64,000 bases of DNA from Minisyncoccota bacterium (GTDB lineage: Bacteria > Patescibacteriota > Minisyncoccia > UBA6257 > GWB1-50-10), in NCBI GenBank assembly GCA_041917695.1, contig JAYRXE010000037.1:536173-600172 (forward strand), in the 5' to 3' direction. The position numbers and the translations under genes were made by a program. The notes beneath the pieces are model-generated. The model had not been told where the DNA came from and did no database searches. It saw only the letters and a list, made by a program, of their open reading frames with translations. Positions 8,828-60,770 of this stretch are shown here, in pieces (the stretch's first letter is position 1; every line of letters starts with the position of its first letter).

Positions 8828-8904
8828 TGGGGTGGATGACGGGTCATGATCCCGCGACCTCCGCTTCCACAGAGCGGCGCTCTACCAACTGAGCTACATC
8901 CACC
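8828..8904 (-). tRNA. tRNA-His (GTG), encoded G-1 and 3' CCA
   Basis: Manual cloverleaf: extra 5' G pairs with C73; anticodon loop CUGUGGA; T-loop AUCAUGA is atypical; CCA encoded. Confidence 0.75.
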
Positions 8905-8979
8905 ATAGGCTCGAAGAAAACGCAGTTTTCTTCTTCCCCCAGGATAGTATGCTACAGGCTTTTTCTCAAGGAGAACGCT

Positions 8980-9396
8980 TTATTCCCCCAGCCACTCTTT
9001 CGGCAAAAATTTCCTCAACTTTTTCTTTTCCGCATCCTTTTTCTTCGCTTCCTGGAAGCGCTGTTCGGCGGATTTGGAGATGCGCGTCGGAATACGGCGC
9101 TTCGGCTTTATGAGTGCCTGTGCGATTGCTTCGCGAAGATGGTTAAGCGCGCGTTCCCGATTCGCTTCTTGCGAGCGTTCTTCGTCGCTTTCCGCTTCAA
9201 GTTCGTCCGCCTGCGTGATACGCGAAGCAAGTTTTTTCCGGAGACGCTCCTTGTCTTCCGGCGACACGAGGATTTTTTCGACCGGAAGCCACACTTGCAC
9301 TTTTGTCGAACGCTTGTTCACGTTTTGTCCGCCGGGACCGCCTGAGCGCGCGGATTTCATTCGCACATCGCGGTCGTCGAAGAGCTTCATCTTCAT
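8980..9396 (-). CDS. arfB: peptidyl-tRNA hydrolase ArfB (class I release-factor GGQ domain, alternative ribosome rescue factor)
   Basis: SGGPGGQNVNK GGQ motif plus basic C-terminal tail, ~138 aa. Confidence 0.75.
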   Translation of the reverse strand: MKMKLFDDRDVRMKSARSGGPGGQNVNKRSTKVQVWLPVEKILVSPEDKERLRKKLASRITQADELEAESDEERSQEANRERALNHLREAIAQALIKPKRRIPTRISKSAEQRFQEAKKKDAEKKKLRKFLPKEWLGE

Positions 9397-10062
9397 ATGA
9401 ATAGGATTATTCTAGAGTATAATGAACCGGTGAACAATTTGCTTGAATCGCTGGGCGCGCTTGCGCTCCAGAACCCCGAATGGACGAAATTCATCATCGG
9501 CATCGGCATCCTCATTCAGGGCGAGATAGCGATACTCCTCGCCATGTATCTCATCCTCGGAAACCACGTAAGCTTTTGGGGTTTCGTTGAGGCCTCTCTC
9601 CTCGGCCTCTTCATCGGCGAATTTCTCATCTATGTGGCGGGGAGAACGCTTCGCACCACCCGTTTCGGGTGGAAACTTTCCCGCAAGCTCAAAACGAACC
9701 GCCGGGTCCGGCTGTACAGCTACTACATCACCAAAAACCGTCTGCGGATGCTCTTCCTGGCGAAATTCCTGCCGGGGGTGAATACGCTTTCCATCCTTCT
9801 CCTCGGGTGGATGCGCGTAAAGGTCCCGCAATTTTTCCGCGTGTACATCCCCGCCGCCCTTTTTTGGTTTGTCTCCACGGCTTTCGTCGCCTATTCCATC
9901 GCCGCCGGGTTGCGCTTTCTCAAATCATCCCGGATATTCGAACAGATTGAATTCGTTATCGCCGGCCTTATCGTCGTCTTCTTTATCGCGGAATGGGGGG
10001 TTAAGAAACTCCTCGCGAAGTACGCCCCGACGGACCTGCCGCCCTTCGGCGACGAGAAATAA
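9397..10062 (+). CDS. DedA/SNARE-associated (VTT domain) membrane protein
   Basis: Polytopic membrane protein with DedA-like core; head-to-head with arfB with zero intergenic spacing. Confidence 0.55.
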   Translation: MNRIILEYNEPVNNLLESLGALALQNPEWTKFIIGIGILIQGEIAILLAMYLILGNHVSFWGFVEASLLGLFIGEFLIYVAGRTLRTTRFGWKLSRKLKTNRRVRLYSYYITKNRLRMLFLAKFLPGVNTLSILLLGWMRVKVPQFFRVYIPAALFWFVSTAFVAYSIAAGLRFLKSSRIFEQIEFVIAGLIVVFFIAEWGVKKLLAKYAPTDLPPFGDEK

Positions 10063-10102
10063 TTTTGACAGCTGTCCCCGACCTTCTATTATTTCGATAT
10101 AA

Positions 10103-10174
10103 CCCCTCGTAGCTTAATGGATAAAGCAGGGCTCTTCTAAGGCCTTGATGGGAGTTCGATTCTCTCCGAGGGGG
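10103..10174 (+). tRNA. tRNA-Arg (TCT)
   Basis: Manual fold: acceptor CCCCUCG/CGAGGGG, anticodon loop CUUCUAA, T-loop UUCGAUU; no encoded CCA. Confidence 0.65.
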
Positions 10175-10237
10175 CACGGGCAAAACGGGCCGCTTCATGT
10201 TGCGGAGCGGGAAAAAATAGTTAGAATAAACAAGTTC

Positions 10238-10309
10238 GCCGCGGTAGCTCAGTGGTAGAGCGCAGCCCTGAAGAGGCTGGCGTCGGGGGTCCGATTCCCT
10301 CCCGCGGCA
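10238..10309 (+). tRNA. tRNA-Phe (GAA)
   Basis: Acceptor GCCGCGG/CCGCGGC, D-arm GCUCAGUGGUAGAGC, anticodon loop CUGAAGA. Confidence 0.8.
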
Positions 10310-10356
10310 CAAGCAGTCATTGCCTTTGCGCATCTGTTTGCGGTAGTATGAATTGC

Positions 10357-10428
10357 CGCGGGGAGGAGTAACGGTTGCTCGTCAGGCTCATAACCTGAAG
10401 GTAGTAGGTTCAATTCCTACCCCCGCAA
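10357..10428 (+). tRNA. initiator tRNA-fMet (CAT)
   Basis: Near-identical to E. coli tRNAfMet architecture, including the C1:A72 mismatch (CGCGGGG...CCCCGCA A) and anticodon loop CUCAUAA. Confidence 0.8.
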
Positions 10429-10434
10429 CAAAAT

Positions 10435-10470
10435 ACAAAGTCCCACCTTATTGGTGGGGCTTTGTATTTG
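10435..10470 (+). terminator. intrinsic terminator after tRNA cluster
   Basis: caaagtcccacc-ttat-tggtggggctttg followed by tattt. Confidence 0.65.
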
Positions 10471-10480
10471 CAGGTAGCCC

Positions 10481-10520
10481 AAAACAAACGCCTAGTCGAA
10501 TGACTAGGTGTTTGTTTTCT
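10481..10520 (+). terminator. second tandem hairpin/terminator
   Basis: aacaaacgcctagtc-gaat-gactaggtgtttgtttt. Confidence 0.5.
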
Positions 10521-10528
10521 GGTGCGAG

Positions 10529-11161
10529 TTAGGAGGCTATGTTAGAAGCGTTTTTCACAGATCTTCCCCAATATATTCGGGTAGCTACTAAACATAAACT
10601 AGCATTTGCAAAGATGAGATAGATTTGAAAAGCTGAATTTTCTATATTCCAAACCGGAATAGCCGGTATGATTATTATTGCGCCAACCAAACTTACAAAA
10701 TAGGAATAAACCGTTTCAGTTTCAGGGTAGCTCCACGCTTTAACAAGCGTGGGAACAGTTGCCAATAAGTCAGCAAGGGCGGCGAAAAGAATTGCGGATA
10801 ATGGGGAATCCGCTACAAGCCAGGAGATAATTGCAACAATTGAAAACGCTCCGCAGAGGTAATCAAATCGCCCAATTTTCCAATAGCTTTTGCGTAAGAA
10901 AAGCGCCGTAATAAAAATGACCAATGGTCCGAAGCCAGACATAAATATGCGTACGGATGCCCATCCATCCGCATGAGAAGAAAGTGCCGCCCCGAAAGCA
11001 ATCATAGGAACAGCGCCCCACAACCCCCAGGTAACCAAATTCGGCTTGGTCTTCCCTTGAAACATATCGCGAAGATATGCAAAAAGGCCGGTAAAGCCTA
11101 TTACGACCGATACTATTACGAGCCAGTGGGCAATGGATATCCCCCAAAATAGTTCATCCAT
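10529..11161 (-). CDS. polytopic membrane protein, unknown function
   Basis: 6+ predicted TM helices; AT-rich composition relative to flanks. Confidence 0.5.
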   Translation of the reverse strand: MDELFWGISIAHWLVIVSVVIGFTGLFAYLRDMFQGKTKPNLVTWGLWGAVPMIAFGAALSSHADGWASVRIFMSGFGPLVIFITALFLRKSYWKIGRFDYLCGAFSIVAIISWLVADSPLSAILFAALADLLATVPTLVKAWSYPETETVYSYFVSLVGAIIIIPAIPVWNIENSAFQIYLIFANASLCLVATRIYWGRSVKNASNIAS

Positions 11162-11231
11162 ATGAGTTATTTAACATTACCACAGCTCACGCCCGGCAGA
11201 GGTGTGATTTTTTTGTTTAGATAAAACTTTG

Positions 11232-11305
11232 CGCAGCGGACGGGACTTGAACCCGCGATCTCCGCCGTGACAGGGCGGCGCTTTAACCAGCTAAGCTACC
11301 GCTGC
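11232..11305 (-). tRNA. tRNA-Asp (GTC)
   Basis: Acceptor GCAGCGG/CCGCUGC, anticodon loop CUGUCAC, T-loop UUCAAGU. Confidence 0.8.
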
Positions 11306-11343
11306 AATGCAGCAATTCTGCGCCCGGTTATTCTAACAATTTT

Positions 11344-11814
11344 CTACCCTTTTACAACTTCAGAGTCCCCGAAACGCTTGATAAGGACGACTCCCATTTT
11401 CGGCAATGCCACGAGTTCGGCGAGCGGTTGGAGCTCGACCTTCCCGATTGATTCGCGTGCGTGTATCACTTCCCCGTTCCCCGCGTACATCACCATGTGG
11501 CCGATATACATGTCCCGAGTCGGAAACAGGTTGTCGTTGTAGTGCCCCTGGGGACCGCGCATGAAAAGCAAATCGCCGGCTTCAAGGTTCGAATAATCTT
11601 CGAGCGGGATTATTTCCCTTCCCTGGATATCGGCGGCCTGCAAGATGGTGCTCCGCGGGAGTTGGATGTGGATTTGCTTGTACAGGTATTGGACGAACGA
11701 CGAGCAATCAAATTCATGGGGCGCCTTTTCGGGAGTGGTGCCATACACGTACGGCGTTCCGATAAGCGACTTGGCGATGGTAATGATGGTTTCTTTTTGT
11801 TGTTCCGTAAGCAT
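11344..11814 (-). CDS. NlpC/P60 (C40) family peptidoglycan endopeptidase
   Basis: Catalytic Cys context HEFDCSSFVQYLY with downstream His; start may be 11856 (MRPSS) or 11814 (MLTEQQ). Confidence 0.7.
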   Translation of the reverse strand: MLTEQQKETIITIAKSLIGTPYVYGTTPEKAPHEFDCSSFVQYLYKQIHIQLPRSTILQAADIQGREIIPLEDYSNLEAGDLLFMRGPQGHYNDNLFPTRDMYIGHMVMYAGNGEVIHARESIGKVELQPLAELVALPKMGVVLIKRFGDSEVVKG

Positions 11815-11873
11815 AATGGGTTCCGCAGAGGCATTAAATGCGGATGACGGGCGCATTCACTCATCCGTATCCA

Positions 11874-11947
11874 GTAGCGGGGGCGGGGATCGAACCCGCG
11901 ACCTTAGCGTTATGAATGCTACGCTCTAACCATCTGAGCTACCCCGC
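11874..11947 (-). tRNA. tRNA with CAT anticodon (elongator Met or Ile2/lysidine)
   Basis: Acceptor GGCGGGG/CCCCGCU (G1-U72 wobble), anticodon loop UUCAUAA, T-loop UUCGAUC. Confidence 0.65.
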
Positions 11948-11994
11948 CGTACAAGAATGAATTGTACGGAGTTCGGCTAAAGTCGGCAAGCGAA

Positions 11995-13152
11995 TTATCG
12001 TACGTCCGCCTTAAACTGGCTCTTCGTCTCCTCGTAGAGCTTCGCCTGGAGCGCGTCCACTTCCTCGCTTCGCAAGGTGCGGTCATGGCTTCGATACACC
12101 ACCCGGAAGGTGTAGCTCGTCTTGCCTTCGCCGAACTTCTTCGGGTCGGCGTAGGTGTCGAGAAGCTCGACCTGCTCGATTAAATCGCCTCCGATGTCAC
12201 GGATGAGGTCGAAATAGTTATTTGGCTCGAAACCACTTGCAACCACGAAGGAAATGTCGCGGGTGATGGGCGGAAATTTGCTCACCTCCTTGAATTTGCT
12301 TCCTAAAACGAGCTGGGCTTTCACCCGTTCGTCCGTGGAGCGGAGGAGGCGGATGTCGGGAAGTTCCATGCTGATCATGGCGAGGCGTTCAAGGCCGAAT
12401 CCGAATGCCCAGCCGTTATAGCCTTCCAAGCCGAGTTTTTGCAATACTTCCGGGCGCGCCATTCCCCCGCCCAGCACCTCCAGCCATTCGCCGTCCTTTT
12501 GTATTTCCATCTCAAGCGACGGATCCGTGTACGGGAACGTGTCATGGTTGAACCGGAACACCGTGCTTCCGCCGAAGGTTGCCTTCGCGATCTTTCCCAA
12601 GATATCCTTCAAATCTTCGACGGTCACCGTCTTTTTTTCATTCGGCTCCAAGTAGAGGCCGTCCATCTGATGGAAGACGTTCAAGTGAAACCGGTCTATC
12701 TCGTCCTTGCGGTACACCTTGCCGTAGGAAAGGAGGCCGAGCGGTTCTTTCGCTTTTATCTTCGCCTGGGTCTCGGGAAGCTGGAGATAGTAGAGCCACA
12801 TCACGGTCGTGTGCGTGCGGAGAATATGCTCTGCATCCACGAAGTACGTGTCCGACGGCTTCCGAGCCGGATGGTCCGGCGGGAAGTTGAACAAATCGAA
12901 ACTTTCATCCGCGCGGACGATCTCCGGGGATTCCACATGGTCGAAATTCGAAAGCTCGTCTATTTTCCTGATGCGCGAAACAAGCTCCCGAATGGGGCTC
13001 CCCTCCTCCCGCGTGAGGTCGGAAAGGGAAAGAAAGCGCGCAAGGCGCATTTTATCGGGGTCCTGTGAGGTTTCCACCTCTTTCCGGAGGCCGTCTTCCT
13101 TCGGATTCGTTACGACCCGGTCTATTACGTGCGAGTTTTCGAAAAGCGGCAT
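11995..13152 (-). CDS. pheS: phenylalanine--tRNA ligase, PheS-type catalytic core fused to a C-terminal FDX-ACB anticodon-binding domain (monomeric, mitochondrial-like architecture)
   Basis: Class II motifs FPPDHPARKPSDTYFV and GFGLERLAMI; ~100 extra C-terminal residues DISFVVASGFEP...GEGKTSYTFRVVYRSHDRTLRSEEVDA matching the FDX-ACB fold. Confidence 0.75.
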   Translation of the reverse strand: MPLFENSHVIDRVVTNPKEDGLRKEVETSQDPDKMRLARFLSLSDLTREEGSPIRELVSRIRKIDELSNFDHVESPEIVRADESFDLFNFPPDHPARKPSDTYFVDAEHILRTHTTVMWLYYLQLPETQAKIKAKEPLGLLSYGKVYRKDEIDRFHLNVFHQMDGLYLEPNEKKTVTVEDLKDILGKIAKATFGGSTVFRFNHDTFPYTDPSLEMEIQKDGEWLEVLGGGMARPEVLQKLGLEGYNGWAFGFGLERLAMISMELPDIRLLRSTDERVKAQLVLGSKFKEVSKFPPITRDISFVVASGFEPNNYFDLIRDIGGDLIEQVELLDTYADPKKFGEGKTSYTFRVVYRSHDRTLRSEEVDALQAKLYEETKSQFKADVR

Positions 13153-13195
13153 TTCTTGATAATAGAAAAAAACAAGGAATTATCAAGAAAAAATA
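13153..13195 (-). promoter_or_regulatory. pheS promoter region with 11-bp inverted repeat (TTCTTGATAAT / ATTATCAAGAA)
   Basis: Minus-strand reading TTGATA-N16-TATTAT placed ~9 nt before the ATG; perfect IR arms. Confidence 0.35.
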
Positions 13196-29726: not shown

Positions 29727-32228
29727 TTAGCGCTCTTGGAAGCCTTGGTCGGAACGTCCGACATTCACGCAGTCGCGGTTCTGTACGCACTGCTGTTCGG
29801 ACGATTCGGAGAAATCGCCGCTTTGGAGGCCCGGAATGGAAGAGTCGCAGAAGCTGTTACGCATGCACACCGGGCGGTTTTCGATGGTCCCTCCCGCATC
29901 ATCTTTCAAGGTCTTTGCCGCGCGGAGATTAGACCAGGTGGGGTCTTCCGAAAGAATGGAAACGCGGTACAGATACACCGAATCCGAATCGAGTTCCTCG
30001 TCCTTAAACGCGGGATTTTTCGTTATAACCGCCGTACGGAAATAGGCGCTGTAGTCGGGACCCGCCGCCGTCGCGGGGAACTCAACGCCGAACTGGCGGG
30101 AAACAAACGCGATGCCGGTACGGGTGAAGTCGGCAATATGTCCGCCCAAGGAAGCGGCGGCATCAAACGACCGTTCAAAAAGTTCCTGAACCGCCCCTAA
30201 AAACGAAGCCGTGAGCGTGGTAAGCGAGCGCCCCGCGTTTAGATTTTCCTCCTCGCCTCCGGACCACCCGTGGGTATACGGGAACGGATCCGATTCAACG
30301 CACACAATATCGGGCTTCCCCGTCGAGCCCTTCATCGCCGTCGAATAAACGTCGCGGAGACTCAAGGCCGCGCACACTTTCACTTTGTACTGGTACTGGC
30401 GGCCGTTCCCAACATCGCCATCTTCAAATACATACTGTTGCGGTGAAGCCGGCGGCTCTTCGGCGGTCCATCCGAGCACTTGGCCGCGAACGAGCGCATA
30501 GTTCGCTCCGCCGTCTTCCGAACGCCACAATTCTTGCGTATACGGCACCCACACGGTCGGGTTTTCCCACGAAACTTGCACTTTCTTCGAGCCGGTTGCT
30601 TCAAAGCGGAGCGTATAGTTCCGCGAGGGCGTCACTTTCATGCGTTGAAGCTCGAACTCGTACGGCGTCGTTGCGCGGGAAGTGTCTTTCCAGTTCACGA
30701 TAATCGAACGCGACGAATTCGCGTAAGCGTTCATGCCGGTTACCGTACCAATCGGCGCGGGTGATTCGCCGGTTCGGCAGGATACGATCGGCGTGCGCAC
30801 CGAATATCCGTCGTTTGTGAAAACCGTCTCGAGTTCGTAATAATACGTGGTCTTTTCGTCGAGATCCGTATGTGCAAAGGAAGCGAGCGGACCATTCGAA
30901 GAAGCGATGACGGTTTGCGGCGGAGTCGCCTTCGCCCCGCGGACCGTCACGCGGTGCGCCGGATAATTCGTACTCGTGTAATTTTTCGTGATGATAAGCC
31001 GCATGGAGGTCTGGCCTTCGGGCAGACACACCAAATCATAGGGCCGGACGATGGTAATCGAATCCGTCACAATGCCGTTTTCAGTTTCTTCAGTTGAAGA
31101 AGCGCGGAGCGTCGTATTCGCCGGCTGCGGAATGCGGTCCGGGGCGGTATAGCGCGTGAATTGCGAAGGGCCCGAGAGCGACGGATTCATGCGTCCATAG
31201 GTGTCGTTCCCGCCGAGCGCGCCGGCGATGAACCAAGCGGTGGCAAGATTCGCGGAAAAATCCCGCGTATCGCGGATGGCGATTTTATGGGGTCCGGGCG
31301 GTTCGATGCCGTACGGTCCCGTCGAAGTGGGCGTAATGATGTTCAAAGACGACGAAGCAAAGACGAGCCACCCGCCGATAGTGTCCCCCGCCCACGCAAG
31401 GCCGGTGAGGACTTTATGATTCACCCCGCCGTTTCCCGCACAGCTTTCCCCCAGGGAGACGGGCGATTTACCTATCGTTACCGTCCCGCCCGTCGAGTCG
31501 CCGAAACAAAGGCCGAAATTGTTGCCGCCCGCCACACCGCGCAAGGAAACCCAGCCGCCCCACGAACCCGGCGCTTCGCCGTTTATAAACCGCGCCCATC
31601 CGTAGAGCTTCCCGTCTGCGCCGATTCGCGCCGCGCATTCCCCGTTCGGACATCCTTCCAAGTCTTCATCATTAAATGAAAGCCACCCGTACCCTGTTCC
31701 CGATTCATGAGCCGCCCACATGACGCCGTGCATAAGGCCGTCCGTATCGGCATAGACGCCGTACGGCACCGAGGAATGATTGCCCTTTCCCTGCTCCTGG
31801 CTCGCATTGTTCACGCTAATCCACCCGATACCCTTCCCCGCCATGGCACCCCATCCCACGCCGCGGACGATGCTTCCTTCGCGGATATTCAAATTGAGCG
31901 GTGCACGGGAAGTACCCGCGCCGGTAAGCGCCCCGCCTTGCTTCCGCTGAATTTCGTAGATGTACGAATTGCCGGTCGGCACATTCTGGTCCCGCCAGCT
32001 CGCGCCCGTTCCGACATTGATGTTTGTGGTGCCCCCTCCGGGAGTGCGGCGGATAAGCGTGTATGACTCCCCTCCTTGTGCAGCCGGCCATCCGTCTACG
32101 AAAACACTTGCAAAATTTTCAGTAATTGAAGAGACGCGGACACGGACGGAGAGCGTTTCCTGCGCGGAAACCGCGGATGCGGAAAGGAAAAGCAGGGCAG
32201 ATGCAAAAACGAGGAAAAATTTCTTCAT
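29727..32228 (-). CDS. large secreted protein (833 aa), Gly/Thr-rich beta-rich repeats, unknown function
   Basis: Signal peptide MKKFFLVFASALLFLSASAVSAQ at internal start (rc ATG 32226-32228); no catalytic motif. Confidence 0.55.
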   Translation of the reverse strand: MKKFFLVFASALLFLSASAVSAQETLSVRVRVSSITENFASVFVDGWPAAQGGESYTLIRRTPGGGTTNINVGTGASWRDQNVPTGNSYIYEIQRKQGGALTGAGTSRAPLNLNIREGSIVRGVGWGAMAGKGIGWISVNNASQEQGKGNHSSVPYGVYADTDGLMHGVMWAAHESGTGYGWLSFNDEDLEGCPNGECAARIGADGKLYGWARFINGEAPGSWGGWVSLRGVAGGNNFGLCFGDSTGGTVTIGKSPVSLGESCAGNGGVNHKVLTGLAWAGDTIGGWLVFASSSLNIITPTSTGPYGIEPPGPHKIAIRDTRDFSANLATAWFIAGALGGNDTYGRMNPSLSGPSQFTRYTAPDRIPQPANTTLRASSTEETENGIVTDSITIVRPYDLVCLPEGQTSMRLIITKNYTSTNYPAHRVTVRGAKATPPQTVIASSNGPLASFAHTDLDEKTTYYYELETVFTNDGYSVRTPIVSCRTGESPAPIGTVTGMNAYANSSRSIIVNWKDTSRATTPYEFELQRMKVTPSRNYTLRFEATGSKKVQVSWENPTVWVPYTQELWRSEDGGANYALVRGQVLGWTAEEPPASPQQYVFEDGDVGNGRQYQYKVKVCAALSLRDVYSTAMKGSTGKPDIVCVESDPFPYTHGWSGGEEENLNAGRSLTTLTASFLGAVQELFERSFDAAASLGGHIADFTRTGIAFVSRQFGVEFPATAAGPDYSAYFRTAVITKNPAFKDEELDSDSVYLYRVSILSEDPTWSNLRAAKTLKDDAGGTIENRPVCMRNSFCDSSIPGLQSGDFSESSEQQCVQNRDCVNVGRSDQGFQER

Positions 32229-32296
32229 TAGAATCATTATATCAGACCCCGTATTCCAACTCATTCGGGAAATATGTGGAAAAGTTAGCCTCAAAA

Positions 32297-32326
32297 CAAA
32301 AACCCGCCGGGCGGCGGGTTTTTGTT
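32297..32326 (-). terminator. intrinsic terminator
   Basis: aaacccgccgg-gcggcgggttt directly after the stop of the 522-aa gene. Confidence 0.6.
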
Positions 32327-33895
32327 TTATCGATATTGGAAACACCGGGCGGTACACCGGAGACCGCGAGCGCCACCACCCTTCATATTCATTTCCCAAT
32401 TAGTGCCGTTCACACGCACATTGCATTTACCAAATTGAATGGTGTCATCCGATTCGAAGCCAGTCAAAGCGCAAAAGTAATTTGCCGTTGGCAAAATCGT
32501 ATTAGTCAATTCCTGCCGATTAACCGACACCCACGTGAATTCCTGGAACTGCTGGGTGGGATTCGGCTCCTCGCAGACGAGCCAGCCCTGCGCATCAACT
32601 TTCAAGAACTTGCGGACGCCGATGCCGTTCACGTTGAAACACGTCGTAGCGAGTACGTTATCCAAGTTCACCTTGAGACCTCCCGTATGATTCGGATCGG
32701 TAATGGAAAGCGTTTTCCCGAATTCTTGCTTCAAAGAAACGGTGTCGGAGCCGTTCGGATGCGTAAGCTCGATTCTGCCGGGGCGGAAAGTTCCGCCGTA
32801 AGTACCGCCCACCTTGAGCACGCTCTCACTCCCGGAGGAACCAACGATCTGTACCGGACCGCTTTGGGCCGCGAGGCGATCCTTGATGAGCATCATGCCG
32901 TCCTGGCCGACGCTCAATTGGGTGGCGTTCGCATTGTTTACGAAAGAAAGCGTCCCGCCGATGTTTTTAAGGGTATACGGCGTCACGTTCGTCGGAGCTA
33001 ACTTCACATCGTTTTGTGCGGTCACGGCGCCTTGCGCAGTGAACGTTGCCTGGGCAGTAAGCGGACGTGCCGCCGTGACGTTCCCTGTCGCCGCATCTAT
33101 TGAAAGAGCGGTCGTCCCTCCCGCCTGGGCGTTTGCAGAGTTGATAAGACCGTTATTCGTTTGGTTGCCCCCTCCGCCGTTTGTCACCTGGAAATTCACG
33201 GCGTTTGCCGTCACTTGCGTATTGAAATTCACGCCGTTTGTCGCACCGACGCTCACGACCGTCGTCGTTGTATAGACGCCGCCGCGGCCGAGTGCCCAAA
33301 AATTCGCGGAGATGTTATTGATAGTCCCGCCTCCGCCGCCAACCTTCACCCAGCATCGTCCCGCCTGGGCGTTTGCCGAGGGAATGAACGCCTCCTGCTG
33401 GCCCTGTGCGCAGTTTGTTCCGCCCGTAAAAAGCCATAAATCACCATTATCGTAGGTTATGGTGCCGGCAGGCACTCCCGTTCCTAAAACAGTTGTCGAA
33501 TAGCTGGGGAGCACTACCCCCTTAGTCTGAATAAGAAACGGATTTGTGCTGTTTGTCAGCACGGTATATCCACTCGCTGATAAGTAAAATGAATTATTGC
33601 CCGGTTGCGAGCGCACGGAAGCGCCATCTTGTAATATTAGTCCACTTCCACTGTTCTTATTCGCCTCAAGGTAATCAACTTTAATGCCGGCACTTTTTGC
33701 TTGAAATGTCTGCCCTATATCAATAGGAGCGGTAGTGTTTCCACCTGGAAATTGCTGGGTGGGCGGCGTCCACGTCGAAGGACCGCGCTGACCAAATACC
33801 TGCGTCGCGGAAAAAAGAAGCACTCCCGCGAAAAGACCGGCTAAAAGGAATCTCGAAAGTTTCATAGGCTTTTTATCTTGCTTTAAGTATAGCAA
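32327..33895 (-). CDS. secreted Gly/Thr/Asn-rich protein (522 aa) with Cys-containing C-terminal domain
   Basis: Signal peptide MKLSRFLLAGLFAGVLLFSATQVFGQ; low-complexity repeats; C-terminal ...FCALTGFESDDTIQFGKCNVRVNGTNWEM... Confidence 0.55.
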   Translation of the reverse strand: MLYLKQDKKPMKLSRFLLAGLFAGVLLFSATQVFGQRGPSTWTPPTQQFPGGNTTAPIDIGQTFQAKSAGIKVDYLEANKNSGSGLILQDGASVRSQPGNNSFYLSASGYTVLTNSTNPFLIQTKGVVLPSYSTTVLGTGVPAGTITYDNGDLWLFTGGTNCAQGQQEAFIPSANAQAGRCWVKVGGGGGTINNISANFWALGRGGVYTTTTVVSVGATNGVNFNTQVTANAVNFQVTNGGGGNQTNNGLINSANAQAGGTTALSIDAATGNVTAARPLTAQATFTAQGAVTAQNDVKLAPTNVTPYTLKNIGGTLSFVNNANATQLSVGQDGMMLIKDRLAAQSGPVQIVGSSGSESVLKVGGTYGGTFRPGRIELTHPNGSDTVSLKQEFGKTLSITDPNHTGGLKVNLDNVLATTCFNVNGIGVRKFLKVDAQGWLVCEEPNPTQQFQEFTWVSVNRQELTNTILPTANYFCALTGFESDDTIQFGKCNVRVNGTNWEMNMKGGGARGLRCTARCFQYR

Positions 33896-37838: not shown

Positions 37839-39260
37839 TTATCGGCAATACCCGGCAATGTCCGTCCCTAAACAAATCGTGCACCCGAGCGCCGTCCAAC
37901 CATTGGTAACACCTGAAGGAACTTCATCAGGAACACCCACCCCTCCTGAAATGCTTCGCGGATCGCAGGTGGGAACCGAGTAGGCTACATGGCTACACGA
38001 GTTATTGGCATCAAATATAGCGCCCGATGTGCAGGTATAGGTTGGCTCAAAATCACTGCCAACGCCGCCTTCAGCTACCCCAAAAACTTCAGTGGTTTGT
38101 ATCTGACCGTTACCAGCGTCATATGATGCCCAACCCCCTTCGTTCATTCTATCGCAGTTATAATCAAAATCTTTTTCCGCGATGGGATTTATGAAATAGC
38201 TTGTCTGCCCGGGAAAGGCATTCGCATTATCGTCATGGCAATCAAGTCCCCCGTTCGGCAGCTCGCCAATATTCGGGTTCCACGGCCGCGAAGGCGAATC
38301 CTTCACGCGTACCTCAGGGGTGCACTGGTCGAGACATTCGTAGTGCATCGTACCAAGGTCGTCCGTAAACGTATCACTGTCGACGTCGTTGTACCACAAG
38401 AGCGCTTCCTTTATCTTTGCCGTCGAGCCGGTTTGGAGCGTTATCGCCCCGCTACTGATACGCAATGAGGCGTTATGGTCGGCATCGCCATTCCAAACAA
38501 GTGTTGAATTACCCGTAAGGTTGACGGTATTGTCTCCGAGCAACAAATCGCCGCCGTCAAAGCCCTCAACGCCCGTCGTCGGAGAACACGAACCCTGCAA
38601 ATTGCCATTCGCGTCGAAGACGCATTCAGGATCGGACCACGCGAGGGTGAGTGTGGCGGTATCGCCGTTAATGTCTTCCGCGACGAATTTCGTGTGATAG
38701 GTCTTCGTATGCGTGTCGTTCACGACCCATGCTCCTTCATATGAATACTCCATGAGCGCCTGCGCCTCGGCTTTCGAGACAAGCTGGTTCAAGACGCTTT
38801 CGGCGTAACCGTTTCCTTTATTGATGATAAGCGTGCCTTCATCGCTCACGAGATACGGCTGTGAACGGAAGTAATCCGCGGAAAGCGCTTTCGATTCTTT
38901 CATCGTAAGCGGAATCTCCTGCGTCTTTGAATCGGTGTCGATGACCGCCTTCACGCTTTTAAGCGCTACGGGACTCGCGATGCGCACCTGCATGAGCTGG
39001 GTATCGCCAACGCGCACCTTCAAGGGGCTCACGACGCCGCCCGTGAACTTCGGGTATTCCCCGGAGCTCGCGGTGAAGCGGTATTCGCCGTCGGTCGGCA
39101 ACTGCCACTCCTGCCCCCGGGCGTTTACGTAATACTCGCCGAGCTTGTTCGACGCATTGGGAACGAGGCCGTTCCAGAAATAATATCCGGCGACCAGAAG
39201 AAACGCGATGCCGACGACAACTGCGATCGTCGACTTCTCTTTTTGGGTAAAGTTTTTCAT
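37839..39260 (-). CDS. membrane-anchored extracellular Cys-rich protein (473 aa)
   Basis: N-terminal TM anchor; about 20 Cys in the C-terminal half; no known motif. Confidence 0.5.
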   Translation of the reverse strand: MKNFTQKEKSTIAVVVGIAFLLVAGYYFWNGLVPNASNKLGEYYVNARGQEWQLPTDGEYRFTASSGEYPKFTGGVVSPLKVRVGDTQLMQVRIASPVALKSVKAVIDTDSKTQEIPLTMKESKALSADYFRSQPYLVSDEGTLIINKGNGYAESVLNQLVSKAEAQALMEYSYEGAWVVNDTHTKTYHTKFVAEDINGDTATLTLAWSDPECVFDANGNLQGSCSPTTGVEGFDGGDLLLGDNTVNLTGNSTLVWNGDADHNASLRISSGAITLQTGSTAKIKEALLWYNDVDSDTFTDDLGTMHYECLDQCTPEVRVKDSPSRPWNPNIGELPNGGLDCHDDNANAFPGQTSYFINPIAEKDFDYNCDRMNEGGWASYDAGNGQIQTTEVFGVAEGGVGSDFEPTYTCTSGAIFDANNSCSHVAYSVPTCDPRSISGGVGVPDEVPSGVTNGWTALGCTICLGTDIAGYCR

Positions 39261-39439: not shown

Positions 39440-40870
39440 ATGAAAACGATATGTGCTTTAACTCTATTCATCCTGGGAAATCTTCTTTTTTCCCAGCCGT
39501 ATACGCTCGTTCCCGAGTGGAGCAAAAACTTCACCCTGGGCGGGAACTCGGATGATTTTAAAGGAGTCGTCGTGAACAACGCTGATTTCAGCGTTTTCGT
39601 AAACGGTAATATCAGCACCACGGGATTTTCCTCCAGTGGGTTGGTAAAGCTTTCGCCTGTTGGAGATTCATTATGGGCCGTAACAGACAGCATAAATTCC
39701 ACAAGCTCCAATTCTCAGCAAATGATATATCACGAAGCTAGCGGAAAAACATTTTATGTTTCAAACGGCACCCAGTATTACCTTATTTCTCGAAATAAGG
39801 ATACGCGCGCGATTGAAAACATAGTTGCCTTCCCTACTCTGATCCACCTTGGCGACTACGGAGACTCATTGGTTGCAATCACCCATGAATCAAACGGCAA
39901 GATTCTTATCCTTGATGCCAACGGCGCCACAAAGCGGCAGTTCAACCTGGGCTATAACACCAACGTGGGAACCTTCACGCTTCGCGTGTGCGGTACTCAT
40001 CTCTGGATTATCGGCCTTCAGAACACTCAAACCGGTTTCTGCGCCAAGTACAACCTTTTTACCGGCCAGGAATTATGGAGGGTAAGCGTGCCTCGCCTCA
40101 TCCGCCCCTTCGGCGATGTTGACTCGCTTGGAAACGCATACCTCGGCGGAAGCAGGACTGACACCTTGAATGCGGCAGTGCTGAGATACAAGTGCATGAA
40201 GCTCAGTCCTTCGGGAGCGATCCTGTGGGATAAGGAAGCCTTGGTAAACCTTACCGACGCTGCCAATAACAACAACTGGGTGAACGGCGTTGCCGTATCG
40301 CTCCAGAAAAACGTTGTGGTCTTGGTCGGCGAAGCCGGAAAGGACAGTTTGGTGAACGACGGAAAGCGCGCCGGATACATCCGCATATTGAACATCACCA
40401 ATGGAGATTCAGTCCTTGCCATGAAGGTGTACATAAACCCCGTGGCCGGTTGGAATCAAATCCAGGGCGTGACGTTCGATATATATGGAAAGATGTATGT
40501 GGTCGGAAAGACCCGAGACGTCCTCTTGAACCCGGACAACACCGGTTTCGTCAGGAAGCTCAGGATTGATTCCCTCACGGGAATCAATGACCCCAGCGAG
40601 AATGCGGAAACATTCTCACTTGCCCAGAACTATCCGAACCCGTTCAATCCTACGACCACCATCCGCTTCTCAATTCCGAAGAAATCAGCCGTGAAGATAA
40701 CGGTATTCGATATCTTAGGCAAAGAAATCGCGATAGTGGCACAGAAAGAATATGGCAGAGGCGTTCATGAGCTCGGTTTTGACGGCTCAAATCTTTCAAG
40801 CGGCATCTACTTTTACCGCCTGGAAGCCGACGGCTTCAGCGAAACCAAAAAAATGATTCTCGTGAAGTAG
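39440..40870 (+). CDS. secreted beta-propeller-like protein with T9SS (Por) type-A C-terminal sorting domain
   Basis: Signal peptide; C-terminus AQNYPNPFNPTTTIRFSIPKKSAVKITVFDILGKEIAIVAQKEYGRGVHELGFDGSNLSSGIYFYRLEADGFSETKKMILVK; AT-rich. Confidence 0.65.
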   Translation: MKTICALTLFILGNLLFSQPYTLVPEWSKNFTLGGNSDDFKGVVVNNADFSVFVNGNISTTGFSSSGLVKLSPVGDSLWAVTDSINSTSSNSQQMIYHEASGKTFYVSNGTQYYLISRNKDTRAIENIVAFPTLIHLGDYGDSLVAITHESNGKILILDANGATKRQFNLGYNTNVGTFTLRVCGTHLWIIGLQNTQTGFCAKYNLFTGQELWRVSVPRLIRPFGDVDSLGNAYLGGSRTDTLNAAVLRYKCMKLSPSGAILWDKEALVNLTDAANNNNWVNGVAVSLQKNVVVLVGEAGKDSLVNDGKRAGYIRILNITNGDSVLAMKVYINPVAGWNQIQGVTFDIYGKMYVVGKTRDVLLNPDNTGFVRKLRIDSLTGINDPSENAETFSLAQNYPNPFNPTTTIRFSIPKKSAVKITVFDILGKEIAIVAQKEYGRGVHELGFDGSNLSSGIYFYRLEADGFSETKKMILVK

Positions 40871-54429: not shown

Positions 54430-55941
54430 ATGCGATATATCGATTCCCTCCTTAATTCGGTTACGATGTACCGACTTGTCTTGTACGGTCTTACGGCGCT
54501 TGCCGCGTGCGCGTTCCTGTTAAGTCTTTTCGGCGCCGTACACTATCCCCCGCTCAATCTTTTCTTTTCGCTTCTTATTCTCGTCGCCGTCGCCTGGGGG
54601 TTGAACGAGCTTCTTGCGCGCCTCTTCAAAGCGCCGGTAAACGTCGAATCGGCGTACATCACCGCCTTCATCCTTTTCTTCCTTCTCACGCCCCCGGGAA
54701 ACTTTTTCGAGGCGTTCCTTACCGCCGGCGCGGGAGCGCTCGCCATCGCTTCGAAATATTTCTTCGTCTACAAGAAAAAACATTTTTTGAATCCCGCGGC
54801 GGCGGGCGCGTTCCTGCTCGGCCTTTTCGGCTTCGGCCTTTCGGTATGGTGGGTCGCGACGCCGATCCTTTCCGTTCTCACCGCCATCGTCGGGTTTTTG
54901 GTCGCGCGGAAAATCCGCCGTCTGCCCCTCTACTTCACGTTCATTCTCTTCGCGCTTCTCTCCGTCGCGCTCTTTGCGTATTCAAACGGCGCAAACCCGT
55001 GGCAAACCGCGCTTGAGTCGCTCCTTTCCTGGCCCGTCTTCTTCCTCGCGGGATTCATGCTTACGGAGCCGCTCACGACCCCGCCCACCCGTTCGCTCCA
55101 GATCATCTACGGCCTCCTCGTCGGCCTGCTCTTTGCGCTCCCCTTCGAAGCGGGTCCCGTCTTTTCCTCGCCCGAACTCGCCCTGCTTCTCGGAAACGTA
55201 TTCTCGTTTTTCGTAAGTATGAAGGGACGCCTTGTGCTTACCCTCGCGGGTAAACGCACGGAAGGAATCGATATATACGACTTCGCTTTTTCCGCCGACC
55301 GGAAGCTCGCATTCCAGCCGGGCCAGTACCTGGAGTGGACGCTTCCGCGCGCTTCCCCCGATTCCCGCGGAAACCGGCGGTATTTCACGATTGCCTCTTC
55401 CCCGACCGAAAAAGATTTGCACCTTGGCGCCCGCGTTATGGAAAAGTCATCGAGCTTCAAGCGGGCGCTCCTCGCGCTCCGCGAAGGCGAAAAAATATTC
55501 GCGGGAGAACTGCGCGGAGACTTTACCCTGCCGGAAGACAAAAATCGGAAGCTCGCCTGGATCGGCGGGGGCGTGGGAATCACGCCGTTCCGGAGCATGG
55601 CGAAATATCTTACGGATACTTCCGAGAAAAGGGATATCGTCCTTTTCTACGCCTGCGTGAAACGTGAAAGCTTCGCCTACGGCGACATCTTCGATGATGC
55701 ACAGCGCGTAGGGATTAAAACCCGATACGTCATCACGGACCCGCATAATCTTCCGGAAAATTGGGACGGCCTCGCGGGACCGCTGAGCCCGGGAATGCTC
55801 ACGGATGCGCTCCCGGACTGGAAAGAGCGCCTGTTTTACCTCTCCGGACCCCAGGGAATGGTGGACGCGTACCGCGATATGCTCCGGGGAATGGGCGTGC
55901 ATCGGAAAAACATCTGTACGGATTATTTCCCCGGATTTTAA
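54430..55941 (+). CDS. polytopic membrane domain fused to an FAD/NAD(P)-binding ferredoxin-reductase-type domain
   Basis: ~270-aa multi-TM N-terminus; C-terminal RRYFTIASSP (FAD) and GGGVGITPF (NAD) motifs. Confidence 0.6.
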   Translation: MRYIDSLLNSVTMYRLVLYGLTALAACAFLLSLFGAVHYPPLNLFFSLLILVAVAWGLNELLARLFKAPVNVESAYITAFILFFLLTPPGNFFEAFLTAGAGALAIASKYFFVYKKKHFLNPAAAGAFLLGLFGFGLSVWWVATPILSVLTAIVGFLVARKIRRLPLYFTFILFALLSVALFAYSNGANPWQTALESLLSWPVFFLAGFMLTEPLTTPPTRSLQIIYGLLVGLLFALPFEAGPVFSSPELALLLGNVFSFFVSMKGRLVLTLAGKRTEGIDIYDFAFSADRKLAFQPGQYLEWTLPRASPDSRGNRRYFTIASSPTEKDLHLGARVMEKSSSFKRALLALREGEKIFAGELRGDFTLPEDKNRKLAWIGGGVGITPFRSMAKYLTDTSEKRDIVLFYACVKRESFAYGDIFDDAQRVGIKTRYVITDPHNLPENWDGLAGPLSPGMLTDALPDWKERLFYLSGPQGMVDAYRDMLRGMGVHRKNICTDYFPGF

Positions 55942-59216: not shown

Positions 59217-59348
59217 GTTATCTTTAAACGTGGAAGAAAACGTTTCCTAACACGCACGAATAATCTTCGCTAATTTTCACTTCAAAATCAAATTTCCTTG
59301 AATTCATGCGGTTTTACTGGTATTGTAGGAAGGCTCTATTTAACTCTC

Positions 59349-60770
<1,422 letters not shown>

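Follow-up and report, generated by a model that had tools for sequence, protein, structure and literature searches.

In a 64,000-nt stretch of DNA from a Minisyncoccota bacterium of the Patescibacteria, or Candidate Phyla Radiation (CPR) (contig JAYRXE010000037.1, positions 536,173 to 600,172; hereafter, the window), an open reading frame (ORF) on the minus strand encodes, in a single chain, a catalytic core of the type found in PheS, the alpha subunit of bacterial phenylalanyl-tRNA synthetase (PheRS), followed by an anticodon-binding domain of the type found at the C-terminus of PheT, the beta subunit. The ORF at 11995..13152 is uninterrupted, starts with ATG, and comprises 385 codons. The source genome is about 680 kb in size (a contig of 679,953 bp in NCBI), and the window-based searches described here cover the 64 kb of the window. 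The gene and its parts are the following:

11995..13152, minus strand: complete coding sequence of a single-chain PheRS, 385 amino acids (aa) plus the stop codon (11995-11997); delineated by the ORF list, the two-domain Pfam match and an identical public protein (P0001)
13006..13152, minus strand: N-terminal segment, residues 1-49, which packs on the catalytic module in the AlphaFold2 model and is included in the structural alignment to human mitochondrial PheRS
12316..13005, minus strand: class IIc PheS-type catalytic core, residues 50-279; PF01409, identity to E. coli PheS, and motif conservation in the family
12283..12315, minus strand: linker or hinge, residues 280-290; the gap between the two Pfam envelopes
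11998..12282, minus strand: C-terminal FDX-ACB (ferredoxin-fold anticodon-binding, B8-like) domain, residues 291-385; PF03147, TIGR00472, and identity to PheT and organellar PheRS

The two-domain Pfam match at this locus is far beyond chance. PF01409 (tRNA-synt_2d) covers residues 50-279 (E-value 1.3e-58, 198.8 bits), and PF03147 (FDX-ACB) covers residues 291-385, with profile positions 1-94 of 94 aligned (E-value 5.5e-23; 81.6 bits, with a cut-off of 31.1). The C-terminal domain also aligns to positions 698-798 of the NCBIfam model TIGR00472 (pheT_bact; E-value 9e-21), shows 33% identity to residues 698-794 of E. coli PheT and 39-42% identity to the C-termini of eukaryotic organellar PheRS, and retains the R-D-I-S/A signature. 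The core contains the DHPAR and LRTHTT motifs, motif 2 (GKVYRKDEIDRFHLNVFHQMDG), FPYTDPSLEMEI, and motif 3 (GWAFGFGLERLAMI). An earlier, sequence-only reading of this DNA had proposed the fusion from several peptides, all of which are present in the protein: GFGLERLAMI, in motif 3, occupies residues 251-260, DISFVVASGFEP occupies residues 299-310, and LIRDIGGDLIEQVELLDTYAD and GEGKTSYTFRVVYRSHDRTLRSEEVDA follow. The assignment of the C-terminal extension to FDX-ACB holds over the full profile; the extension itself had been put at about 100 residues, whereas the stretch after motif 3 amounts to about 125 residues, made up of a ~28-aa linker and a ~95-aa domain.

The N-terminal segment is predicted to form two helices (residues 17-28 and 32-42, with predicted local distance difference test, or pLDDT, values of 87-94), and a Pfam search of the 385-aa protein produced no match to PF02912, the coiled-coil N-domain of canonical bacterial PheS. 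Between the two domains, at about residues 279-295, the AlphaFold2 model shows no regular secondary structure. The identical protein is encoded, with the same neighbors, on independent contigs, and the databases contain thousands of proteins of ~375-390 aa, those listed having the same two domains. An assembly artefact can therefore be dismissed as the source of the fusion.

The closest solved relatives are organellar rather than bacterial. In a search of PDB sequences, the best matches were to human mitochondrial PheRS (E-values from 8e-56 to 2e-54), compared with 1e-35 for bacterial PheS, and PheT matched the last ~100 residues only. An AlphaFold2 model built from 62 family members reached a mean pLDDT of 93.2 and a predicted template modeling score (pTM) of 0.86. 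When this model was compared with known structures using Foldseek, it aligned with the apo forms of human mitochondrial PheRS (3cmq, 5mgv, and 8p8x) over ~385 columns at ~31% identity, with template modeling (TM) scores of 0.75-0.77, whereas bacterial PheS chains matched the catalytic half only. The TM score with the tRNA-bound, open form (3tup) was only 0.58; given this and the full-length match to the apo structures, the modeled conformation is the closed arrangement seen in the free mitochondrial enzyme. The mitochondrial-like architecture suggested by the sequence-only reading, an alpha-type core with a C-terminal FDX-ACB domain, is therefore borne out by the profiles, the PDB sequence matches, and the fold.

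The catalytic residues expected of a PheRS are retained. Among 118 family members, at least 98% conservation was observed at 111 of the 385 positions, and both the window protein and the family keep DHPAR, LRTHTT, motif 2 (GKVYRKDEID...FHQxDG), the FPYTDPSxE segment of the Phe pocket, and motif 3 (GWAFGFGLERL). The core is 34% identical to residues 108-326 of E. coli PheS (reference sequence taken from NC_000913), and motif 3 includes the Ala aligned with Ala294, the specificity-determining residue of E. coli PheS.

Judged by sequence comparison, the fused PheRS constitutes a large, strongly conserved family in the Parcubacteria/Paceibacteria. More than 7,400 homologues were detected at E-values of 1e-10 or lower; the top 120 are all two-domain proteins of ~344-419 aa, mostly 375-390 aa, at 57-74% identity. 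A scan of GTDB species representatives yielded 80 loci at 57-66% identity, the best match being 66%, with hosts among the Jorgensen-, Yanofsky-, Giovannoni-, Doudna-, Lipton-, Zambryski-, Azam-, Niyogi-, Colwell-, and Wildermuthbacteria as well as metagenome-assembled genomes (MAGs) labeled "Paceibacterota/Minisyncoccia". Sungbacteria are represented among the homologues as well, and a further search adds the Wolfe-, Staskawicz-, Portnoy-, and Nealsonbacteria to the hosts of the fused family. Among 1.84 billion representatives clustered at 50% identity, the Parcubacteria family is reduced to what is essentially a single full-length entry, after which come eukaryotic organellar PheRS, a protein of Yasminevirus, and a protein encoded on a 340-kb phage-like contig. 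Some CPR members are already automatically named "phenylalanine--tRNA ligase" or "alpha chain" in the databases. Full-text searches of the accessible literature turned up no description of a monomeric PheRS from bacteria or the CPR, nor of SrmL (a PheS-related mystery ligase, see below), which is not proof that none exists.

Two groups of candidates were rejected in the course of these searches. A homologue labeled 'Oligoflexia' (P0127), considered as a case from non-CPR bacteria, has named relatives that are again Parcubacteria, so that its label is doubtful. Proteins consisting of the catalytic domain only, found in the representative search, turned out to be eukaryotic fragments (with Tra1 neighbors) or giant-virus genes. 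A more distant fused homologue, P0130 (456 aa, 38% identical), is encoded at L089:9463-10833 and L090:154-1524, where translating the called gene with code 11 does not give the protein; a CPR lineage that has reassigned a stop codon, similar to Gracilibacteria/Absconditabacteria, may thus use a single-chain PheRS as well.

No second pheS or pheT was detected in the window by tblastn with E. coli PheS and PheT as queries, and no second pheS or full pheT in the 1.23 Mb flanking the 80 related loci, where ~1.5 chance encounters would be expected, so that this latter result is weak alone. Evidence at the level of lineages comes from a table of single-copy Pfam markers in public CPR genomes (Additional file 1 of PMC8672522), of which a portion comprising 178 genomes was used. 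In 25 of these 178 genomes, FDX-ACB is present without the PheT-specific B5 domain. As any pheT gene supplying FDX-ACB would also supply B5, this is the pattern expected of genomes that encode only the fused PheRS. The PheS N-domain (Phe_tRNA-synt_N) is absent in 24 of these 25 genomes but present in 54 of the 85 that have both FDX-ACB and B5 (Fisher p = 8e-8), whereas the two groups differ little in marker completeness (0.52 vs 0.55-0.63). Adjacent canonical pheS-pheT genes are reported for Ca. Yanofskyibacterium parasiticum PMX_810_sub (Table S2 of PMC10936435) and Ca. Microsyncoccus PMX.50 (PMC9763046), and, among the rows listed for these two Paceibacterales genomes, PF03147 occurs once only, with no fused copy. 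Among the rows listed for Minisyncoccus archaeiphilus, there is no PheRS entry. The phylum is thus a patchwork of canonical and single-chain lineages, and the data fit a single form, one or the other, in each genome. The source organism most likely belongs to the single-chain lineages, with the fused enzyme as its sole housekeeping PheRS, in which case pheS and pheT would be absent from its genome.

Monomeric, two-module PheRS as a kind are well known from mitochondria. In reviews, the monomeric PheRS is the organellar form, next to the bacterial and the archaeal/eukaryotic-cytosolic heterotetramers (PMC3275996), and AARS Online labels it 'mitochondrial-like' (PMC11580382). The window protein has the two-module chain in common with mitochondrial PheRS (human FARS2, yeast MSF1; PheRS-M; TIGR00469; structures 3cmq and 3tup) and likewise includes neither a beta subunit nor an editing domain in the chain. 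It differs in having a bacterial host, so that a targeting peptide is not expected, and in lacking the ~40-residue insertion that splits the catalytic domain of the human enzyme and is present in many mitochondrial-type members. Compared to the canonical (alpha-beta)2 enzyme (TIGR00468 and TIGR00472), the core is homologous to PheS and the C-terminus to the B8 domain of PheT, but there is one chain instead of two, without the PF02912 coiled coil and the B1-B7 modules, and hence without the B3/B4 editing site; the score with TIGR00468 is 174.1 bits, below the cut-off of 237.45. The chemistry is presumably the same as that of the canonical bacterial PheRS.

The fused format is not confined to cellular genomes. 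A 348-aa mitochondrial-type PheRS with the same fused architecture and comparable size is encoded at L091:8001-9047, on the 340-kb contig that also carries PhageMetallopep, PcfJ, and a SNF2 helicase, and the Yasminevirus annotation includes a related catalytic-core protein (VBB18274.1); evidently, large viruses carry this compact PheRS format. The catalytic cores of these two proteins are 37-39% identical to that of the window protein. In contrast to the latter, the virus and phage versions cluster with the eukaryotic/mitochondrial group and pass the TIGR00469 cut-off, and they are auxiliary genes of mobile genomes rather than a sole synthetase.

In a neighbor-joining tree with E. coli PheS as the only outgroup, the CPR family formed a clade of its own with 100% bootstrap support, separate from the eukaryote/virus/phage group; the CPR family and SrmL grouped together with 83% support, and the monophyly of the eukaryote/virus group received less than 60%. 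The phylogenetic comparison proposed along with the sequence-only reading thus sets the CPR family apart but gives no direction to its relationship with the eukaryotic enzyme: the tree does not decide whether the latter is sister to, derived from, or the donor of the CPR enzyme.

Taken together, we propose that the gene encodes the housekeeping PheRS of a Patescibacteria bacterium in the single-chain, mitochondrial-type format, and assign this explanation as a whole a probability of about 0.8. The core (residues ~50-279) would activate Phe, its predicted substrate, with ATP and transfer it to tRNA-Phe, whereas the FDX-ACB domain (residues 291-385) would stand in for the beta subunit's B8 domain and read the GAA anticodon. 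If it behaves like human mitochondrial PheRS, the enzyme would be closed when free, and the anticodon-binding domain would swing open on the hinge upon tRNA binding. A beta subunit would not be needed, and the enzyme probably functions as a monomer. Without the beta subunit there would be no B3/B4 editing site, so that fidelity against Tyr would rest on the active site alone. Yeast and human mitochondrial PheRS maintain fidelity against Tyr by the synthetic site alone.

Several observations weigh against this assignment. The search for pheS and pheT covers 64 kb of the source genome, with the remaining ~616 kb outside it, and the marker table consists of anonymous draft genomes in which the protein carrying FDX-ACB is not shown. 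In the Phe pocket, the second aromatic residue is Tyr rather than Phe (FPYT for the FPFT of mitochondrial PheRS), and the acidic residue after HQ in motif 2 is Asp rather than Glu (HQxDG for HQxEG); both changes are conservative and fixed in the family. Many family members are labeled 'hypothetical protein' by NCBI, and the window protein scores 235.3 bits with TIGR00469 (pheS_mito), under the cut-off of 258.35; a 62%-identical relative (P0124) passes with 264.3 bits, so that the family straddles the cut-off. Its highest-scoring NCBIfam model is that of SrmL (NF051887; 244.4 bits, under the cut-off of 300). SrmL, a Patescibacteria family (Nealson- and Harrisonbacteria), resembles the window protein in the two-domain layout and in length and shares the Tyr in xPYT. 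In one Nealsonbacteria MAG, a radical-SAM operon lies between a SrmL gene and a second, divergent fused gene, the product of which shares 47% identity with the window protein. Thus, fused PheS-like paralogues with other roles exist in the phylum.

Accordingly, the alternative to be weighed most carefully is that the window gene itself is such a PheS-derived paralogue with a non-canonical job, supplying or consuming aminoacyl-tRNA for the modification of peptides or metabolites in the manner of SrmL, with normal PheS and PheT encoded elsewhere in the genome. This possibility gains from the grouping with SrmL in the tree, from the MAG with two fused genes, and from the canonical PheS-PheT of some Paceibacteria. 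However, bona fide SrmL proteins (P0235, P0272, P0207, P0270, and P0254) score 359-442 bits, far above the window protein, and have a remodeled pocket (HPYT, LEcG, GLAxG, and HQxDiW), whereas the window family keeps the PheRS residues (FPYT, LGGG, GWAFG, and HQxDG). The SrmL proteins also have long branches in the tree and a weak FDX-ACB match, in contrast to the short branches and very high conservation of the window family. In the SrmL loci (L093-L096, e.g. L094:6319-11180 and L096:10001-17294), two or three radical SAM/SPASM genes adjoin and, in some, a class I LysRS-like gene is present; tblastn detected neither type of gene in the window or in the 80 loci of the family, where the context is housekeeping. 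The SrmL clade is evidently not a housekeeping PheRS, and the SrmL/radical-SAM cluster resembles a gene set for modification or biosynthesis linked to aminoacyl-tRNA, with SrmL itself looking like a neofunctionalized duplicate of the CPR single-chain PheRS. By these features, the window gene is not a member of SrmL. With the 24 CPR genomes in the portion of the marker table used here that have FDX-ACB but neither B5 nor the PheS N-domain, and with redundant synthetases being unlikely in a genome of ~680 kb, we consider a paralogue with a different function improbable.

A different possibility is that the protein is a housekeeping PheRS that works with a separately encoded partner, such as a free B2-like tRNA-binding OB-fold protein or a free-standing editing factor, so that the enzyme would be, in effect, a split bacterial PheRS. 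Indeed, in 17 of the 80 related loci, a tRNA_bind (PF01588) gene encoding 130-159 aa directly precedes the fused PheRS gene, either overlapping it or separated from it by 2-98 nt (L017, L020, L024, L028, L037, L038, L045 at 9555-9950, L048-L052, L055, L056, L073, and L078, plus L006, at whose edge the copy is truncated). Its product is 32-38% identical to residues ~45-150 of E. coli PheT, the B2 OB-fold region, and could be what is left of the beta subunit, acting in trans. The window, however, has no tRNA_bind gene, nor do most of the related loci; the upstream gene in the window encodes a NUDIX hydrolase, with a terminator-like hairpin between it and the PheRS gene, and neither the window nor the flanks of the 80 related loci yielded a B3/B4 homologue. 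Furthermore, human mitochondrial PheRS, which has the same two modules (3cmq, 3tup), is active on its own, which makes an obligatory partner for the CPR enzyme quite improbable. Least probable of all, and very unlikely in absolute terms, is that the gene was recently acquired from a eukaryote, a giant virus, or a jumbo phage, or is a product of contamination or chimeric assembly. The same architecture does occur in eukaryotes, in Yasminevirus, and on the 340-kb phage-like contig, and the FDX-ACB domain is slightly closer to the eukaryotic domains than to that of E. coli PheT. Against such an origin, the neighborhood is an ordinary CPR one, the protein and its neighbor genes recur in independent assemblies, and the 2-kb bin that contains the gene has a G+C content (0.527) inside the range of the window; moreover, the vertically conserved family forms its own fully supported clade that spans many candidate phyla at 57-74% identity, with loose linkage to tRNA-Met and tRNA-Asp genes.

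If the single-chain enzyme is the sole PheRS in many Parcubacteria, a large bacterial radiation decodes Phe without a beta subunit and without proofreading of Tyr-tRNA-Phe, which would bear on translational fidelity in ultra-small symbionts. In that case, pheT and the canonical pheS model would be unsuitable as 'universal' single-copy markers for these lineages, and bacterial relatives would become available to root the origin of FARS2. The scores just under the curated cut-offs lead to the labeling of many members as 'hypothetical protein' and, as a result, the genomes appear to lack a PheRS. A broader scenario, which we regard as speculative and, on balance, unlikely, is that whole orders of Patescibacteria replaced the (alpha-beta)2 PheRS with an editing-less single chain, that this lineage is sister to or the source of FARS2, and that the scaffold was duplicated within the CPR to give rise to SrmL. 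Were this the case, the 'mitochondria-only' monomeric PheRS would not be a eukaryotic invention.

Among the neighbors of the gene, gatC/gatA, ligA, type IV pilus genes, numerous tRNA genes, and large ORFs without recognizable domains are typical of Patescibacteria; the tRNA genes, gatC/gatA, ligA, a NUDIX gene, and NlpC/P60 provide a housekeeping context. Three features in the vicinity of the PheRS gene are of note:

10238..10310, plus strand: tRNA-Phe(GAA), the presumed substrate, 1.7 kb from the PheRS gene (ARAGORN; Rfam tRNA, 65.8 bits)
11874..11948, minus strand: tRNA-Met gene, 46 nt downstream of the PheRS stop codon (ARAGORN; Rfam)
13159..13186, minus strand: sigma-70-like promoter match, TTGATA-16-TATTAT (consensus scan, 10 of 12 positions matching; pattern match only)

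Six tRNA genes (His, Arg, Phe, Met, Asp, and Met) are located within 3 kb, at 8828-11948, beside the PheRS gene, and tRNA-Met and tRNA-Asp genes occur near the fused PheRS gene in many relatives, so that the linkage is loosely conserved. The tRNA-Phe has A73, the G34-A35-A36 anticodon, G37, and an unusual C at position 55 (T-loop GTCCGAT). Position 55 is nearly universally U (Psi55), and A37 is usual in bacterial tRNA-Phe. Among the 11 other tRNAs of the window, 10 have GTTCxA in the T-loop, and tRNA-His reads GATCATG. The tRNA-Phe sequence is identical in two further assemblies of the species (L001 and L002).

The consensus scan of the region yielded 4 promoter-like sites, with 1.0 expected. 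The -10 element of the site listed above ends 6 nt before the ATG of the PheRS gene, so that the transcript may lack a leader or carry only a very short one. Ahead of this element, after the upstream NUDIX gene, lies the terminator-like hairpin (13217-13198, minus strand), also a pattern match only. No T-box or other leader RNA was detected upstream of the PheRS gene, Rfam finding only tRNAs in the window.

Elsewhere in the window, three ORFs on the minus strand, at 29727-32399, 32327-33895, and 37839-39260 (890, 522, and 473 aa, respectively), have no Pfam match at an E-value of 1e-3 or lower. At 54430-55941 and 59298-60770, both on the plus strand, we noted, respectively, a 503-aa protein in which an NQR2/RnfD-like membrane region is joined to an oxidoreductase NAD-binding domain, and a short IF-2 gene (490 aa) in which the IF2_N domain was not detected. 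The type IX secretion system is characteristic of Bacteroidota; the 476-aa protein encoded at 39440-40870 on the plus strand contains a domain unexpected in Patescibacteria, the Por_Secre_tail domain (type IX secretion C-terminal sorting; PF18962, E-value 1.2e-12).

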